64,000 nucleotides of DNA from a virus, in IMG/VR virus record IMGVR_UViG_3300050821_003463, positions 30,544-94,543 of that record; one strand, 5' to 3'. A program made the translations under genes and the position numbers. Below the pieces are notes generated by a model that saw only the letters and a list, made by a program, of their open reading frames with translations, was not told where the DNA came from and did not search any database. This document shows positions 6,685-44,538 of this stretch, one piece after another. Position 1 is the first letter of the stretch, and every line of letters begins with the position of its first letter.

Positions 6685-8349
6685 TCATGCTTTCCTCGCT
6701 AGCCTTTCGCTTATGACTTTGCTCGCTTGTCCGCTGGTCATCAGATCAAACGCAAATGCCTTGTGCGGGAATAACCGCTTGAGCATCGCCTTCTGTCCAC
6801 CGGTGACCGGCTTGCCGTGCCAAGTCGCCTCGCGCAGTATCTTCGTGAGCGTCATCTTCGTTACGCGCTTGCGGACCTGCTCATCGCTCACCTTGAAGAT
6901 TTCTTCTATGCTCGGGCGAGTGCCGTGGAACTCATCCTCGTTGATGCGCCCGACCAACTCCCACTTACCGAGTGCGTTTTCGAAGACGCGCACAAAGCCA
7001 GCGCGCGAGTCTTCCTTCGGGATAAGCATCTTGTAGCCGCCGTCAACAGCGCGGAACCACATCAACTCGCTATTTGATTCTACCTCAGCCGGGAAGCGTA
7101 CCTGGAACAAGTCAACCTGCTCAATAAGCCACTTCGCTTTATCGAGCGATTCTAGTTTAGAGAAGTCAACGCTCGGATGTTCTTCCTTCAGCGCTTCCAA
7201 CTCTTCGACGGCTTCCAGAAGACCGCGCCCCTGGAGATCGAGCGACGCCTGCATGCCCATCAGCGTTGGTAGCGTGAGCAGACTATGCTTGCTCGTGCCG
7301 TCAACGACGTCTATGACGATCAAGTCCTGCTTGCCCGCGAATAGTCGCGTGCCGCGTCCTACCATCTGGGTAAATAGGACACCAGACGTGGTAGGACGAG
7401 CAAGTACCACGCACGCAATACCCGGATCATCGTATCCTTCAGTGAGCACATTGCAATTAGTAAGAACGTTAAGACTACCCGTACGGAAAGCATCGAGTTT
7501 CTCCTGTCTGAGAGGATCATCGCCCCACACCGCTTCGGCGGCAATACCGCGATCCTTAAACGCCTGCGCCTGATCCTTCGCGTGCTGGATGTCCACCGTG
7601 AAGACCAGCGTCCGCCGATCTTCGCCTAGCTTCTTCCAGACGTCTACGATCTGTCGGTTGCGCTTCTCCTGGTTAACAGCAGCGGAGAGTTCGCTCTTGA
7701 CGAAGTCCCCATCGCTCTTGCTGACTTCGTCTAGCTTCGTGTCTGTGACGGTGCGAAACCCACGGACGGGCACGAGCCACTGCTCTTTGATCGCCTGTCG
7801 GATGCTGTAGACGTATGCGACCTTCTCGAAGAGATCACTGAGTGGTGTCCCGTCGGGTCTGTTGGGAGTAGCGGTAACACCCAGTAGCAACTTGCGAGTA
7901 TCATCGCGAAGAGAGCCAGCAGCATCAAGGATGCGACGGTAGCCGTCAGTAACGCCATGATGAGCTTCATCGATAACGATCTTGTCGATCTTGTCCCAGT
8001 TGAATTTGTCAACACGTTTAGTATCCTTCCGACCGAGAGTCTGTACGCTGGTGCTGACGACGTCATCAAAAAGAGGGTCGCACTGCGTTCCCGCCATCTC
8101 AATCCCGACGCTGAGCGCAGGGTTGACCGCTTGCATCTTATCCGCGTTCTGTTTGACCAACTCTTCAGTATGCGCGATCACGAGCATCTGCCCGGGTAGG
8201 CGCGACTTCATAGCATCGTACAGCTTCGAGAACACGATAGTCTTGCCCGTGCCGGTCGCCATCACATGCATCATGCGACGTATGCCCTTATCGTACTCAG
8301 AGAGCGTCGCAGCGATAGCTTCAGTTTGATACGGTCGATCTTGCATCAT
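6685..8349 (-). CDS. Superfamily 2 DEAH helicase
   Basis: RPYQ, ATGTGKT, DEAHH, TATP, QMVGRGTR. Confidence 0.95.
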   Translation of the reverse strand: MMQDRPYQTEAIAATLSEYDKGIRRMMHVMATGTGKTIVFSKLYDAMKSRLPGQMLVIAHTEELVKQNADKMQAVNPALSVGIEMAGTQCDPLFDDVVSTSVQTLGRKDTKRVDKFNWDKIDKIVIDEAHHGVTDGYRRILDAAGSLRDDTRKLLLGVTATPNRPDGTPLSDLFEKVAYVYSIRQAIKEQWLVPVRGFRTVTDTKLDEVSKSDGDFVKSELSAAVNQEKRNRQIVDVWKKLGEDRRTLVFTVDIQHAKDQAQAFKDRGIAAEAVWGDDPLRQEKLDAFRTGSLNVLTNCNVLTEGYDDPGIACVVLARPTTSGVLFTQMVGRGTRLFAGKQDLIVIDVVDGTSKHSLLTLPTLMGMQASLDLQGRGLLEAVEELEALKEEHPSVDFSKLESLDKAKWLIEQVDLFQVRFPAEVESNSELMWFRAVDGGYKMLIPKEDSRAGFVRVFENALGKWELVGRINEDEFHGTRPSIEEIFKVSDEQVRKRVTKMTLTKILREATWHGKPVTGGQKAMLKRLFPHKAFAFDLMTSGQASKVISERLARKA

Positions 8350-8503
8350 TCGTCTCCTCGTACACCCACCACATCAGAACGGAATCTACACATTGCTCCA
8401 GATAAACGCGCCCTGCAGGAGTAGTCTTAAAGCGCATGGGAAAGTCTACGAGGGGGTCGTCATCAATTGCCGCCGACCAACGAAACTTCTGGATGCGAAG
8501 CAT

Positions 8504-8881
8504 TTACGCTTTCTCAAAGAACAGCGTTGGCTCACGATCACCGTCCTGTAACCGAATGATGGAGTGCCCTTCGCGCCGCCGATCACTGCCAAGGATAGCC
8601 TGCAGCGCGATGCGCTCCAAGGGAGTGATTTTGTTGTAGAGAATTACGACGATATGTTTCCCTTCAGGCTTCGAGCGAGAGGGCGTTGTAAAGACGTTCT
8701 GGATGCCTGCGAACCGGTCTACGATGTCGTAGTTTCGCACGAACTGGTCAAACTCCAGGCTGTTGTCGATGTCAATAAACAATTCGTTGTCGGCTGGGGT
8801 CCTGACGGTGAGCCCTTCCTTCGTCGCCCACTCGCGCGCTTCTGCTGAGGTGTTGCCGCCCGCTGTGATAAATTCGCTCAT
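8504..8881 (-). CDS. Small AEP/primase-like fold protein
   Basis: LFIDID and SRS..GKH motifs; start MSEFIT at 8881. Confidence 0.4.
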   Translation of the reverse strand: MSEFITAGGNTSAEAREWATKEGLTVRTPADNELFIDIDNSLEFDQFVRNYDIVDRFAGIQNVFTTPSRSKPEGKHIVVILYNKITPLERIALQAILGSDRRREGHSIIRLQDGDREPTLFFEKA

Positions 8882-39478: not shown

Positions 39479-39825
39479 CGAAATCTCCTGCCCTGGGTGA
39501 TCTTCGCCGTGCGTTTGAAATCCGCTGTGACCGGCACGGGGTTGACCAGAGCCTTGCGCGCGGCGATCAGGTCTAATTGAGTTTCGTCAATGTTGTGCGG
39601 ACCCCCGGGCTTGTGCCGTCGTACGTAATCTTGCAGCGTCCAATCTATCTTATCAGAGTCTATAGGTACCGGTAAGATTTCCACCGTGTGACATTGCTTA
39701 CAGCCTACTCGCATTCGGTCTGCATGCCAAGCAAATTGAATGTTGACGTCCAATCCCGCAGTCTTCATCCACTGGTGGAGATAACTCTGGATTGTCGTTT
39801 GCACATCCGCTTTGCTCACCGGCAT
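39475..39825 (-). CDS. Hypothetical protein with C-terminal GRRFR
   Basis: CKQCH; coupled ORF. Confidence 0.6.
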   Translation of the reverse strand: MPVSKADVQTTIQSYLHQWMKTAGLDVNIQFAWHADRMRVGCKQCHTVEILPVPIDSDKIDWTLQDYVRRHKPGGPHNIDETQLDLIAARKALVNPVPVTADFKRTAKITQGRRFR

Positions 39826-39991
39826 ACAGCCCCCTATAAAGTCTCAGTGATCGCTTTCACCGCCACGCCGAGCACCATCAGTATCAAGCCCCACTCGACA
39901 CAGCCCTTAGCCTGCCACGACAGTACCGCGAGCGTCATGCAGATCGCAGAACCAACCAGAGCCGAGATAAGAAAGCCCAGCGCGTAGAATT

Positions 39992-40762
39992 TCATGCGTC
40001 CTCCCGTCGAGCTAAAGTTTCAAAATACTCAGCGAGATCAAAGCGAGAGGTTCTCTGGATTTTACAGAAGCCGCAGGACTCTCCGACCGGATGAAGATGG
40101 TACGTGGAGCCAGCGGAGGGAATCGAACCCCCGACCTCGGGTTTACAAAACCCTTGCTCTGCCGTCTGAGCTACGCTGGCAGTTTTCCACACCTTATCTG
40201 GCGCGATGACATGATGCGACTCAGTCTTCGCCATCTTCGCTTCAATCTCTTCCAGTGACCAGGGCTCGAAGTCGTGACTGTCTACGCCAATATCAAAAGA
40301 GTGCCCGAGTTCTTCGATCTCCCCGTGCGAGTGTCCGTAGACGTGCCACGAACCCTTGTGCGAGTTCTGCCATACGCGCTGGGCGAAGTGAGAGATCACT
40401 ATCATATGTTTGTTGAACTTCACGCTGTGACTCGTGTTCTCTTTGTTAACTCCCCGAACCCACTCGAACTCTTTCTGCAGTGTAACGCGGCGCTCCATCA
40501 GCTCATCGTGATTGCCGTAGAGAAACGCATGTCTTCCGTTTAGACGATGAACGATGGATCGCGCTTCCATCTCACTCATTGTCTGCCAAAACATGTCCCC
40601 GGCGTGGATAGTCAGGTAGGATGGCTTATTGGGAACCTTCTTGTTGTGGCGCTCGATGATGATCTCTCTCATCTCCTCAGTCGAGGAGAACGGGCGATTG
40701 CAAAACTGAATGATGTTGTTGTGCCCGTAGTGCTCGTCACTGGTGATGAAGATTTCGCTCAT
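39992..40762 (-). CDS. Calcineurin-like metallophosphoesterase whose 3' part reads through a tRNA gene
   Basis: SDEHYGH, GD, GNHD, HF, GHSH, DIGVD. Confidence 0.9.
   Translation of the reverse strand: MSEIFITSDEHYGHNNIIQFCNRPFSSTEEMREIIIERHNKKVPNKPSYLTIHAGDMFWQTMSEMEARSIVHRLNGRHAFLYGNHDELMERRVTLQKEFEWVRGVNKENTSHSVKFNKHMIVISHFAQRVWQNSHKGSWHVYGHSHGEIEELGHSFDIGVDSHDFEPWSLEEIEAKMAKTESHHVIAPDKVWKTASVAQTAEQGFCKPEVGGSIPSAGSTYHLHPVGESCGFCKIQRTSRFDLAEYFETLARREDA
40105..40180 (-). tRNA. tRNA-Thr (anticodon TGT), CCA encoded
   Basis: GCCAGCG/CGCTGGC acceptor, GCTC/GAGC D-stem, TTTGTAA loop, TTCGATT T-loop, TCCA end; 76 nt. Confidence 0.92.
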
Positions 40763-41127
40763 TTTACTCTCGTTGCCTCCGATGAAGTGCCCTGTGTGTA
40801 CGTCAGAGGTGCCGTGTTTACCAGCACGAAAACTTTGCTTTCCAAAGTGACGACTTCGGGTATTTCCGGTACAGATGTCATCACAACCTTGACTCGCGCG
40901 AGAAACGTCTGGGAAATATGCCCGAATTTGGGTGTCTCGACCATGCGCGCGACGATGGAAAACATTTGAGATGGAACTCTCGTCTCATTCCAACGCAAAG
41001 CAGCAGGCGGGGGTGGCAGGAGAGTTCCGAGTTTTCGTTTGACTTCGCTTAGAGCGAACCTAGCCATTTCTTCAGGACTGGCGTCTTGGATGCGTGTCTT
41101 TCTCCGCGCCTTCTTCTTTATCGCCAT
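40759..41127 (-). CDS. Hypothetical protein
   Basis: AAGGAG RBS directly after the tmRNA coding piece. Confidence 0.55.
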   Translation of the reverse strand: MAIKKKARRKTRIQDASPEEMARFALSEVKRKLGTLLPPPPAALRWNETRVPSQMFSIVARMVETPKFGHISQTFLARVKVVMTSVPEIPEVVTLESKVFVLVNTAPLTYTQGTSSEATRVK

Positions 41128-41140
41128 GTCTTCTCCTTAA

Positions 41141-41340
41141 AACCAGAAATTAACGGGGACTTTCTGTTCCAAGGTCGTCCCCTGAACCCGCTGACGCGGC
41201 AGCTTTAGGCTGCGGCGGCAAATGCTTTCGGCTTTTCAGTCGTAGCAATTATTGTTTCTGTGTCCTGTTAACGGTAGCCACAGCAGCCCGACACGCAAGT
41301 TAAAACCCTGATGCGCCGCAATCGAAACCATGACGCCCCC
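41141..41340 (-). ncRNA. ssrA: tmRNA coding piece of a permuted ssrA; tag (A)ATTEKPKAFAAAA
   Basis: 5' GGGGGCG...TTCGA at 41340; ATAATT before resume codon GCT at 41246; tag ORF 41246-41205; downstream GGGGAC/GTCCCC pseudoknot. Confidence 0.9.
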
Positions 41341-41449
41341 ATCAAAGTCGCCCACTTGACGAATCGCGCTCTGCCGTATTCCGATGAGAGCAACGGGTCG
41401 TTTTCTCGTAGTGGTCAAACACACGCCCTTGCGCTTTCTTGGGCGACTT

Positions 41450-41510
41450 TGGTGGAGGCGGGGAGAGTCGAACTCCCGTCTTACAGCGTCAATGCTAACC
41501 TTCTACGTGT
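41450..41510 (-). ncRNA. ssrA: tmRNA acceptor piece of a permuted ssrA (5' extent uncertain)
   Basis: GAC-GGGAG-TTCGACT-CTCCC-CGCCTCC-A-CCA; pairs with GGGGGCG giving G3.U70; lies upstream of the 5' piece in the transcript. Confidence 0.9.
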
Positions 41511-41915
41511 GTTCTTGAAGAAGCGTTTCTCAAAGTCCCGCTTGCTCCTCAATTTCTCCTGCGTGTACCGTCCGTTTCGCGGAGTCACGCTTTTATATTC
41601 TTTGATTAGCATGCGAGCCCGTCTAACCTTTTCAGGCTCGCGCAGATATGGAAAAATCAAACCTAAAAATTTTATCGCCGCATCTCCGCTCAATGACCAA
41701 ACCCCGCTCGGAGAGTGACTCTTCTTAGAAGGTCGTTTCCCGCTTATACAGCCGCCAAAGCGGGTCCACATCCAACTCAACAAAGCTGGCGTGCAACTCG
41801 GAATTGAAACAGTCGGCGCTCGGTGTTCTCCCTTATGACGATGAGTCAGAGTCACCGTGCCCTCGCCATCGAAGAGTCCTGCTGCGTACGATAAGTCAAG
41901 AGAGTCATTTGTCAT
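41481..41915 (-). CDS. Single-motif LAGLIDADG homing endonuclease
   Basis: YAAGLFDGEGTV, FGG, IFPYLREPEK. Confidence 0.88.
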   Translation of the reverse strand: MTNDSLDLSYAAGLFDGEGTVTLTHRHKGEHRAPTVSIPSCTPALLSWMWTRFGGCISGKRPSKKSHSPSGVWSLSGDAAIKFLGLIFPYLREPEKVRRARMLIKEYKSVTPRNGRYTQEKLRSKRDFEKRFFKNTRRRLALTL

Positions 41916-42010
41916 AGTAACTTATTGGGAACTCGACCTACTTCGAAAGGCTCGGTCGAATTTTACGAGGGACAGTTTAGCCTTCTTGGGACCTCAACCA
42001 CTCAATATCA

Positions 42011-42166
42011 GGTGAGCACCTGCGGAATCGAACCGCCTCTCCTCATGGCTTACTGGCGTGGTACTTGGTATACCTTCCCACGTTTTCTCTTCTGTCGCAA
42101 AACAACCATGAGGTACTGTCAGCCCATAGACGCGCGATTGGGGCTGTTCCATAACAGCGTGTGCCC
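42011..42166 (-). ncRNA. tRNA-like RNA with expanded internal arms
   Basis: GGGCAC/GTGCTC-ACC acceptor-like stem, GCGG-TTCGATT-CCGC T-arm, CCTCATGG/CCATGAGG arm. Confidence 0.55.
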
Positions 42167-42265
42167 ATAAGAGGGTAGTCGGGTTTATCCTCCTCGTGAC
42201 TGTTGCGCCCGCGTTATAGCTGGGCGCAGTGTCCGCAAGGTGGCAACCTCGCTCCCTCTATTTAC

Positions 42266-42294
42266 AGATTACTGCTACTCCCGTCGCGTGTCAA
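42266..42294 (-). promoter_or_regulatory. Sigma70-like promoter of the RNA operon
   Basis: TTGACA-17 nt-TAATCT. Confidence 0.7.
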
Positions 42295-42459
42295 GAGAAT
42301 TCTTTGGGATACTTTCTCCGCAATAGATGCGGGGATTAAGACCCTCAATCTTCGCAAGATGCTTAGCGAATGCATCTCTGAAGTCGACGGTATACCGCTC
42401 CATGAAAGTCCCCGGTTCGCGCCCTTCATACAAACCCTCTGTGTAGTTCATCACCCCTC

Positions 42460-44538
42460 CTATTTCTTGTAGTACGGACCTTCCCATCCTTCAGCCTTGA
42501 GCACGAAGCCCATTCCCTCAGCCCACTCCGGTATGATACACATCGCCGCCAGCAGGTCCTTCTCTCCGAGAGGAGAATCAATCGGCACCTCACCTACTAT
42601 TTCATCATGGATCGTCATGATGATCGTGAACCCCAGCTTCTCGGCTTCGAGCATGCCGCTAAGCAGAAGGTCCCTGGCGATAGCCTGTACGACGTTTTCT
42701 GTTAGAAGTCCGCCGTAAAGTCGGTTGTCCTTCGCGCCCTTCGAACCATACATGATGAAGTGGATGCCCTCTCTAGGAGGACCGCCCCACGGTGGAGGTT
42801 CGCAAACGAGGCGCGGCTGATGGTAGTGGATGTATCTTCCGCTGGGCAGCTTGATCTTCAGGCAGTTCTCATCGCGCCCATCCACCACAAGACCGTTCAC
42901 ATAAACACAAATACCAGCCTTCAACGCAGTCAGTGTCGCCGCATTCAGCGCAGCCCAGAGATCGCATATCTCAGGGTACGTCTCGCGGAATCCATAGACT
43001 GCTTCCTTCGCTTCCTTCTCGTTCAAGACGATGCCGTATGTCGCGGCGTAGTCAATGAACTTCTCCCAGCCCATCCCGTATCCGCAACCGAGGATGATGA
43101 CCTTGCCTCGATCTCTGTGTGACTTCGTGACCTCGCTCAGCGGAATGCCGAGCTGTGCTGCCATGACTTCTTTGTAGAGATCGCGCCCTTCTGCGTAAGC
43201 TGACATCATTCCCGGGCACTGTGCAATCGCCGCGAGAACGCGGGACTCGATCTGCGCAAGATCGCCCGCGACCAACTTGTTTCCTGGTGCTGCGGCGAAC
43301 GCGCCGCGAATCGTCGACGCTACGACCTCCATCACCGTGAAGATATCCACTTGGAGATGCGGCTGTGGCTTCTCTGTCGGGTGCGCCGCGTTCCACTCAT
43401 CCATCACCGCGTCATACGCTGCAATAACGGTCGGGATATCGAGCGTTCCACTCCGGATAGCCGCCGTCAGAGCATCGGTGCATTTGGAAACTTCCCGGTT
43501 CGGCTTGTACAAGTTCTGCAACTGCACACCGCGCCCCGCCCAGCGCCCCGTGTGCGCGCCGTGATAGATGAACTGGTCGTGCAGACGTCCGTCCGCGCCT
43601 ACGAGGTCTTCTATCTTCTGCAGCTTCGTATACGCGGAGCCGCCGATCTTCTGTTTGAGTTCAAGAATCTTTCGCGGCAGAGGTTTCAGATAGGGGAGCT
43701 TCAGCCCTTCTTCGACGTGCTCAGCATCAAGACTGTCGAACGGATAGCCTCTCTGTTGCAACCATTCGAGCAACTGGTCACGAGAGTTAGGATTCTCCAA
43801 CCCAGTTTCTATCTTCATCTCACTGATGAACTGGTCAACTGCGCCGAGCGCGAGCGCCTTCGCATTCGCTACGTACGCTTTGTCGATCCAGACGCCCGTG
43901 CTGTTCATGCGCTGGTCAAGCAGCCACGCCTGCTTCTCCCCGGGAGTGATGGGAGAGTTGAACGCAACCGCCGCGTGCCACACGCCACGCTCCGCGATGA
44001 CGTCCATGATGCAATACTCACAGAACTGTTTCCATTCCTCCGGATGCGAGTTCCAGTCCTTGAAGTAGAGAGCCGGTGCGGTCGGGTCTTTCTTCAGAAT
44101 GCGCTTGAACTGTTTGCTCGGCTGGGAGAACAGCTTGACGCCGCGCTTATCGCCCGTCGTGTGGATTTTCTTCTCGTCGATATTGAGCGCGTTGCCCGCT
44201 CGGTCCAAGCCGATAGGAAGGGACATGTACGCGCACAGGACGTTCGGGTCATACCATTCGACGAGAGGGATCGCGATGCCGAGTTTATAATGTAGAATGT
44301 CCTTCTCGAAGTTGAAGTTCCAGGCGCACTTGATCACGGTCGGGTCTGTCAAACCGGCGAGGAGTTCCTGGGGCATCGGCTCGCCCAGGCACGGGAGCCA
44401 GAGCTTGGGATAGTCTTCGTCGAATGCCCACGCGAGCATCAGAACGCTGGTCGTCGGGTCCTTGGCGTAGCGATCCAGTCCGCATAGCTTGATGCTGGTC
44501 ATCGAGCGCGTTTCAAAGTCTAGCCAAAGTCGTCTCAT
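42460..44538 (-). CDS. Phage family A DNA polymerase with 3'-5' exonuclease
   Basis: LDFET, HTGRWAG, DLAQIESR, RDRGKVIILGCGYG, TIHDEIV. Confidence 0.95.
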   Translation of the reverse strand: MRRLWLDFETRSMTSIKLCGLDRYAKDPTTSVLMLAWAFDEDYPKLWLPCLGEPMPQELLAGLTDPTVIKCAWNFNFEKDILHYKLGIAIPLVEWYDPNVLCAYMSLPIGLDRAGNALNIDEKKIHTTGDKRGVKLFSQPSKQFKRILKKDPTAPALYFKDWNSHPEEWKQFCEYCIMDVIAERGVWHAAVAFNSPITPGEKQAWLLDQRMNSTGVWIDKAYVANAKALALGAVDQFISEMKIETGLENPNSRDQLLEWLQQRGYPFDSLDAEHVEEGLKLPYLKPLPRKILELKQKIGGSAYTKLQKIEDLVGADGRLHDQFIYHGAHTGRWAGRGVQLQNLYKPNREVSKCTDALTAAIRSGTLDIPTVIAAYDAVMDEWNAAHPTEKPQPHLQVDIFTVMEVVASTIRGAFAAAPGNKLVAGDLAQIESRVLAAIAQCPGMMSAYAEGRDLYKEVMAAQLGIPLSEVTKSHRDRGKVIILGCGYGMGWEKFIDYAATYGIVLNEKEAKEAVYGFRETYPEICDLWAALNAATLTALKAGICVYVNGLVVDGRDENCLKIKLPSGRYIHYHQPRLVCEPPPWGGPPREGIHFIMYGSKGAKDNRLYGGLLTENVVQAIARDLLLSGMLEAEKLGFTIIMTIHDEIVGEVPIDSPLGEKDLLAAMCIIPEWAEGMGFVLKAEGWEGPYYKK

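Follow-up and report, generated by a model that had tools for sequence, protein, structure and literature searches.

A LAGLIDADG endonuclease gene that overlaps the acceptor piece of a permuted tmRNA gene in an uncultured soil virus

Homing endonuclease genes that sit in essential genes normally survive there only by means of an intron or an intein. I-CreI, I-MsoI and I-CvuI are homing endonucleases that act as homodimers, each subunit with one LAGLIDADG motif, and their genes lie in group I introns of chloroplast rRNA genes. Phage T4 carries, between tRNA genes, the gene of SegB, a GIY-YIG enzyme; the Seg and Mob nucleases are free-standing among phage small-RNA genes, are present in some relatives and absent from others, and need no splicing. 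In the known two-piece tmRNAs, the segment that intervenes between the acceptor piece and the coding piece is thrown away during maturation. Two-piece tmRNA genes have already been described in phages (PMC9004378). LAGLIDADG genes have also been described at tmRNA genes, namely in the intron-form tmRNA genes, where they lie inside self-splicing T-loop group I introns (23/844; PMC11915505), while the same tmRNA catalogue lists no endonuclease gene outside introns (PMC11915505). Our literature search found no free-standing endonuclease at a tmRNA gene.

Here, we considered a window of 64,000 nucleotides from a 94.5-kb record of an uncultured virus from soil. In this window, as in the intron-form genes, a tmRNA gene and a gene for a LAGLIDADG homing endonuclease occur together. 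Unlike in those genes, there is no intron, the T arm of the tmRNA is intact, and the endonuclease gene lies 5' of helix P2 and overlaps it. The gene is free-standing at the tmRNA gene, which also sets it apart from the intron-borne genes of I-CreI, I-MsoI and I-CvuI, and it resembles the T4 nuclease genes in this respect, although SegB is a GIY-YIG rather than a LAGLIDADG enzyme and the reading frame in the window overlaps an RNA gene by 30 nt. The new features are the location 5' of the acceptor core, the 30 nt in which coding sequence and RNA helix coincide, and the endonuclease-free alleles that map the site.

The endonuclease gene and the permuted tmRNA gene

The gene order of the locus, read on the minus strand, is polA, a small ORF, a promoter-like site, a tRNA mimic, a pseudoknot, the endonuclease ORF and the permuted tmRNA. 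The features discussed below are as follows.

44538-42460, minus strand: polA.
42266-42294, minus strand: promoter-like TTGACA-17-TAATCT, read from the sequence and below the consensus threshold of our scan.
42011-42166, minus strand: tRNA mimic, 156 nt.
41933-41985, minus strand: H-type pseudoknot, kept in the related contigs L002 and L003.
41916-41932, minus strand: linker from the pseudoknot to the ATG, ending in AAGTTAC-T.
41481-41915, minus strand: intact, single-motif LAGLIDADG homing endonuclease ORF of 144 aa, assigned by ORF, fold and homologs.
41481-41510, minus strand: dual-use stretch, in which the last 10 codons and the TAA of the endonuclease are the 3' strand of P2.
41450-41510, minus strand: core of the acceptor piece, with the P2 3' strand, the T arm, the acceptor 3' strand CGCCTCC and an ACCA that ends at 41450.
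41477-41461, minus strand: T arm GGGAG/TTCGACT/CTCCC, uninterrupted.
41341-41449, minus strand: intervening segment (109 nt), with AAGTCGCCC...GGGCGACTT as its closing stem.
41137-41340, minus strand: coding piece, with the 5' acceptor strand GGGGGCG from 41340, the P2 5' strand, PK1 and 3' hairpins.
41246-41205, minus strand: tag reading frame ATTEKPKAFAAAA with its stop, within the coding piece.

The tmRNA gene is called both by Rfam, whose model RF04321 (tmRNA_permuted) matches 41510-41205 with 75.5 bits against a gathering score of 47, and by ARAGORN, which reports a permuted tmRNA (tmRNA*) at 41542-41114 with the tag ATTEKPKAFAAAA. The acceptor piece precedes the coding piece, as the permuted class requires, and the hallmarks of a tmRNA are present: the G3.U70 pair (GGGGGCG/CGCCTCC), the TTCGACT loop, an encoded ACCA and a tag that ends in alanines. 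An earlier reading of the DNA, made from the letters alone (hereafter the sequence-only reading), had proposed that the end of the endonuclease, NTRRRLALTL and its stop codon, is at the same time the 3' strand of P2. This was borne out, as paired model positions 1-32 of RF04321 cover 41510-41481, and in a ViennaRNA cofold 41510-41481 pairs with the coding piece. In the sequencing run of the source soil, short contigs match the T arm and acceptor end (41448-41480) with 2 mismatches at a word depth of 105-485, the word depth of the phage in the same run being 15-17; these contigs are probably abundant bacterial tmRNA genes with a near-identical end.

That the ORF encodes a LAGLIDADG endonuclease, as had been proposed, is upheld by its motif, an I-CreI-like fold, a protein family match and homologs annotated as LAGLIDADG proteins. 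The protein matches phrog_5046 of PHROGs with an E of 8.5e-21, and has 97 homologs in a large protein collection, several of which carry LAGLIDADG_1 or LAGLIDADG_3 or are so named. It should be noted that the window's protein itself has no match in Pfam, even at E <= 1, while among 19 aligned homologs PF14528 is matched by 9/19 and PF00961 by 6/19. The motif reads YAAGLFDGEGT, and AGLFDGEG, with residues D16, G17, E18 and G19, is invariant across these 19 homologs. The AlphaFold (AF2) model of the protein has a mean pLDDT of 89.4, with only residues 139-144 below 50, and presents an alpha-beta-beta-alpha-beta-beta-alpha fold, for which the best Foldseek matches in the PDB are I-CreI, I-MsoI and I-CvuI (TM 0.65, probability 1.0). 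The window's protein thus shares with these three enzymes a similar size, a single LAGLIDADG motif and the same fold, although the sequence identity is only 13-18% and the direct Pfam match is lacking. As part of the explanation that we prefer for the whole locus, we regard it as a probable homodimeric enzyme of the I-CreI type, encoded by a free-standing, intron-less homing gene. The gene looks imported, since its GC3 is 52%, as compared with 71% in polA and 65% in the phosphoesterase gene, both in the neighbourhood. No Shine-Dalgarno sequence or ribosome-binding site was found before the ORF.

Endonuclease-free alleles and the upstream region

The sequence-only reading had named endonuclease-free alleles in related phages as a check on its proposal, and relatives without an insertion site at this place, together with a mature acceptor piece that starts near 41510, as a reason to abandon it. 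Five such alleles were found, and they do mark an insertion site here. They come from syntenic viral contigs that were reached through polA (L002, 78% identical, and L003-L006, about 60%); a scan of viral contigs with a single protein found no relative, and a blastn search of 41100-42320 against GenBank phages gave no match. A permuted tmRNA lies downstream of polA in all five relatives, and neither the endonuclease gene nor a remnant of it was detected in any of them, all tblastn matches having E > 0.1. The gene is thus outside any intron or intein and variably present at one locus among related phages, and it is in this sense that we call it free-standing.

In the endonuclease-free alleles the junction, marked here by ^, reads A(A/T)TTAC^(G/A)CACGT directly at the start of P2, and in the endonuclease-bearing alleles it reads AAG(A/T)AC^ACACGT. 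The window itself has AAGTTAC-T-ATG on the 5' side of the ORF and AAGAAC^ACACGT on the 3' side. Based on this comparison, and on the pseudoknot of L003, which lies 15 nt upstream of P2, the insertion is placed within a few nucleotides of TTAC^ACACG. As the pseudoknot and P2 are so close in L003, the endonuclease gene in the window splits two elements that are adjacent elsewhere. Other material is also found at this spot among the relatives: in L002, an unrelated, hairpin-rich insert of 130 nt separates the tRNA mimic and the pseudoknot from P2, in L005 other hairpins occupy the place where the pseudoknot would lie, and in L006 a protein ORF ends 4 nt before the acceptor piece. In L053, which bears an endonuclease gene of the same family, the ORF ends 8 nt before P2.

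Compared with the endonuclease-free alleles, the window carries an insert of about 406 nt (41916-41511), nearly all of which is ORF, and there is therefore no room for a ribozyme core. This bears on the reading in which the ORF lies inside an unrecognised self-splicing intron, as in the intron-form tmRNA genes. Such an arrangement would have precedents, as LAGLIDADG genes are known inside T-loop group I introns of tmRNA genes (PMC11915505) and one homolog of the window's endonuclease (at locus L018) adjoins a group I intron. Nonetheless, a search of 39500-43000 for Intron_gpI gave no match at E <= 1, the insert is essentially nothing but ORF and the T arm is uninterrupted, so that we consider an intron at this locus to be extremely improbable. 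The earlier remark that no group I core is visible is in agreement with these data, and the proposal of the sequence-only reading that the endonuclease gene is lodged in the gene of the acceptor piece without an intron holds as well, given the free alleles, an insert made up of ORF and the missing group I match.

The T arm differs between the two kinds of allele. All five endonuclease-free relatives have the T stem GCGGG/CCCGC, while the four endonuclease-bearing alleles have GGGAG, GTGGC, CCGGT and GCGAG, all of which differ from it by compensated changes. Reads of the source DNA run revealed no joint of the endonuclease-free kind, and the only variant among them, a minor one, has the start of the endonuclease gene as well. 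The possibility that the whole tmRNA travels with the endonuclease gene was considered and set aside, as the identity matrices gave no clear signal; by these matrices the window's tmRNA is as close to those of the endonuclease-free L004 and L006 as to that of L012, an endonuclease-bearing locus. In L003, an ORF of 154 aa just after polA (about 8136-8600) looks HNH-like by eye from its translation, and, judged by such sequences, the neighbourhood after polA seems to attract different nuclease genes.

Upstream of the ATG, the sequence-only reading had seen three interlocking helices, two of which stood up to comparison. The first (AAGGCT 41984-41979 / AGCCTT 41952-41947) and the second (TCGACC 41959-41954 / GGTCGA 41938-41933) are both perfect and interlock as an H-type pseudoknot. 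When the region is aligned with L002 and L003, 97% of the cells pair, and in the second helix both partners are changed in 4 of 6 pairs; just 5/500 shuffles were as good, and slid controls reached 26-51%. The third helix (GAGG 41995-41992 / CCTC 41970-41967) is found in the window and in L003 but is absent from L002 and shows no covariation, so that it lacks comparative support. A scan of viral contigs for the pseudoknot pattern returned only the contigs of L002 and L003, a chance match in L009 and a further match in L011. The pseudoknot is bracketed by an 18-nt direct repeat (83% identical) at 41982-41999 and 41921-41938, which reads GGTTGAGGTCCCAAGAAG and GGTCGAGTTCCCAATAAG on the minus strand.

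The pseudoknot also figures in a reading that follows the sequence-only proposal of one RNA with two roles, in which an RNA of about 540 nt, comprising pseudoknot, ORF, P2, T arm and ACCA, stays whole and serves both as mRNA and as the alanine-charged acceptor half of the tmRNA. With the pseudoknot as its 5' domain, this RNA would pair with the coding piece and serve in trans-translation. In L003 the pseudoknot indeed lies, at 15 nt from P2, where PK4 lies in one-piece tmRNAs, and the endonuclease gene would accordingly split an ancestrally contiguous unit; furthermore, the consensus scan found no internal promoter, and we know of no processing signal for the 5' end of acceptor pieces. The pseudoknot is dispensable, however, being absent from the endonuclease-free L004, L005 and L006, and L002 has its unrelated 130-nt insert at the same spot. 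It is also absent from the upstream region of the endonuclease genes of L012, L013 and L053. Translation to the TAA would, moreover, have to unwind P2, and pairing of the coding piece with sequence upstream of the ORF does not exceed that of shuffled sequence in the window, L002 or L003. Considering all these points, we find a single RNA with both roles to be unlikely.

With regard to transcription, the only candidate start for a transcript that would include the tRNA mimic, the pseudoknot, the endonuclease gene and the tmRNA is the promoter-like site at 42266-42294, a pattern (TTGACA-17-TAnnnT) that is also found in L002 and L004. From 42294 to the tmRNA, the consensus scan found neither a minus-strand terminator nor an above-chance internal promoter, and the simplest reading is therefore one of co-transcription. 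Alternatively, the two genes could be separate transcription units, with a tmRNA promoter inside the 3' end of the endonuclease gene, which would then be a mere neighbour that runs into the tmRNA. Models of cellular two-piece tmRNAs do put a promoter about 35-45 nt upstream of P2, and in L053 the promoter-like CUAUAU segment of the Rfam model alpha_tmRNA falls on the final codons of the endonuclease ORF. In the window, however, 41511-41600 contains no sigma-70-like site, and the beta_tmRNA alignment of this stretch has low posterior support and a poor -10; separate units are, in our estimate, decidedly unlikely here.

The tRNA mimic that precedes the pseudoknot has an acceptor-like stem, a T arm and an ACC end but no anticodon arm. 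It is kept in three relatives (L002 8832-8983, L003 9696-9845 and L005 8467-8611), and its long arm covaries, with CCTCATGG/CCATGAGG in the window and CCAACGGA/TCCGTTGG in L002. As it lies downstream of the tmRNA in L003 and upstream of it in the window, we take the mimic to be a separate module.

The tmRNA-linked endonuclease family

Scans with degenerate patterns for the endonuclease family yielded 80 loci each from metagenomes and viruses, and a further 30 from bacterial genomes. If the metagenome loci are restricted to the 48 that reach 37% identity, the endonuclease gene has a tmRNA at most 181 nt away in 36 of them, counting only matches that exceed the Rfam gathering score; the 12 loci without a tmRNA call are mostly short contigs. 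A tmRNA lies beside the endonuclease gene in 12/14 of the closest viral loci as well. The endonuclease genes take up five positions relative to the tmRNA.

Position A: directly 5' of the permuted acceptor piece, on the same strand (window, L012, L013/L014, L053).
Position B: within the intervening segment (L026, L033, L039, L040, L098).
Position C: facing the 3' end of a one-piece tmRNA (convergent), the most frequent arrangement.
Position D: just downstream of the tmRNA, on the same strand.
Position E: divergent from the tmRNA.

In position A, the overlap with the tmRNA amounts to 30 nt in the window, 18 nt in L012 and 30 nt in L013/L014, while L053 has a gap of 8 nt. Homologs in positions B-E mostly end at FE.RF(F), after about 134 residues, and for this reason the tail of the window's endonuclease is best seen as a run-on into the tmRNA. 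This tail, of 9-10 residues up to the first in-frame stop inside the tmRNA, would be disordered according to the structural model.

A FastTree approximate maximum-likelihood tree, for which support values were not considered, groups the window with L012, L013, P0001-P0006 and P0011 and places L053 elsewhere, apart from this group. P0003 and P0006 share the tail NTRRRLALTL, though they are 58-69% identical overall, and the tails of P0001, P0002 and P0004 look related to it; as far as protein tails can tell, this fits ORFs of the closest homologs that run into similar P2 strands. On sequence grounds, the members of the window's own clade are found at the 5' edge of the acceptor piece in phage tmRNA genes of the permuted kind.

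Position B deserves particular comparison, as the nuclease genes of L026, L033, L039, L040 and L098 also hide in a part of the precursor that is discarded on maturation. They lie after the ACCA, however, whereas the window's gene lies before P2 and its reading frame overlaps a functional helix. In L026 (about 230-690), and also in L033, the acceptor end CGCCTCCACCA occurs as a direct repeat on either side of the endonuclease gene that the intervening segment contains. The intervening segment of L013 (2945-3065) contains a T-arm-like fragment, GGCGGTTCAATCCCGCC, and a tRNA-5'-like fragment, GGTGGGTGTAGCTCAGT. One exact 13-mer, AAGTCGCCCAAGA, occurs at only two of the fetched loci: in the window it stands at the start of the intervening segment (41437-41449, minus strand), and in L012 it lies in the flank 5' of the endonuclease gene (827-839). 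Going by its sequence, this 13-mer may record a move between the intervening-segment position and the 5' position.

A trace of another kind is present in L013, where the ~45 nt at the front of the acceptor piece recur, in decayed form, directly upstream of the ORF, with a score of 26.5 as compared with 16.3 +/- 2.9 in shuffles (4/500). No significant spare copy of this kind was found upstream of the ORF in the window, L012 or L053. In the L013 lineage, it would thus seem that the ORF came in together with the P2 strand that it overlaps, as a single unit, and that this unit took the place of the front of the target gene.

The sequence-only reading had also suggested that the invasion may be linked to the permutation of the tmRNA gene. 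This link is not supported, because all five endonuclease-free relatives are permuted too and because the family also accompanies one-piece tmRNA genes.

Several further observations were made at the family's loci. At L018 (2163-2803), the group I intron that the family member adjoins is on the opposite strand, and standard models call no tmRNA; L018 may be an intron-form tmRNA. On two viral contigs of 75 and 317 kb (L094 and L095, 974-1282), a bacterial-type RNase P RNA (RF00010, 191 bits) is found about 2 kb from the endonuclease/tmRNA pair, adjoining a long tRNA array. Rfam tmRNA matches of 82 nt in L007 (5917-5998) and L052 (535-616) are mini-tmRNAs with the tRNA-like domain only; one immediately precedes a distant homolog of polA, and the other overlaps the end of an endonuclease gene.

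Proposed precursor maturation and homing

We consider it probable that the window contains a free-standing, intronless homing endonuclease gene lodged in the 5' part of a tmRNA precursor that is cut up anyway. The functional acceptor piece appears to begin near P2, because ORFs abut the acceptor piece in L006 and L053 and because L004-L006, L012, L013 and L053 have no pseudoknot before it; these comparisons suggest that the acceptor piece is normally cut free near P2. As the gene would thus lie in an upstream part of the precursor that is dismantled in any case, no splicing would be needed.

According to this explanation, transcription would start from the promoter-like site near 42294 and would include the tRNA mimic, the pseudoknot and the tmRNA. 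The endonuclease would be translated from this precursor, its ORF simply continuing into the tmRNA until the first in-frame stop, and the acceptor core would then be cut free near 41510. In a mixed infection, the enzyme would cut tmRNA genes that lack the endonuclease gene, and repair from endonuclease-bearing genomes would copy the gene in (intronless homing). The probable cleavage target would be either the T arm or a site close to the insertion point; the former is put forward since the T stem differs in every bearing allele seen, which, with so few alleles, should be taken as a hint only.

The locus points to a way into a structured RNA gene that requires no splicing: the invader would occupy a part of the precursor that is removed on maturation, and its reading frame has bases in common with the RNA. 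A third lodging site, 5' of the acceptor piece, thereby joins the two known before, beside and inside tmRNA genes. The family as a whole points to a sizeable group of LAGLIDADG enzymes dedicated to tmRNA genes, of which we found no description in the literature searched. At such loci, annotation pipelines will miscall either the ORF or the tmRNA. The family may, moreover, provide new meganucleases with natural diversity, whose target is a conserved RNA gene.
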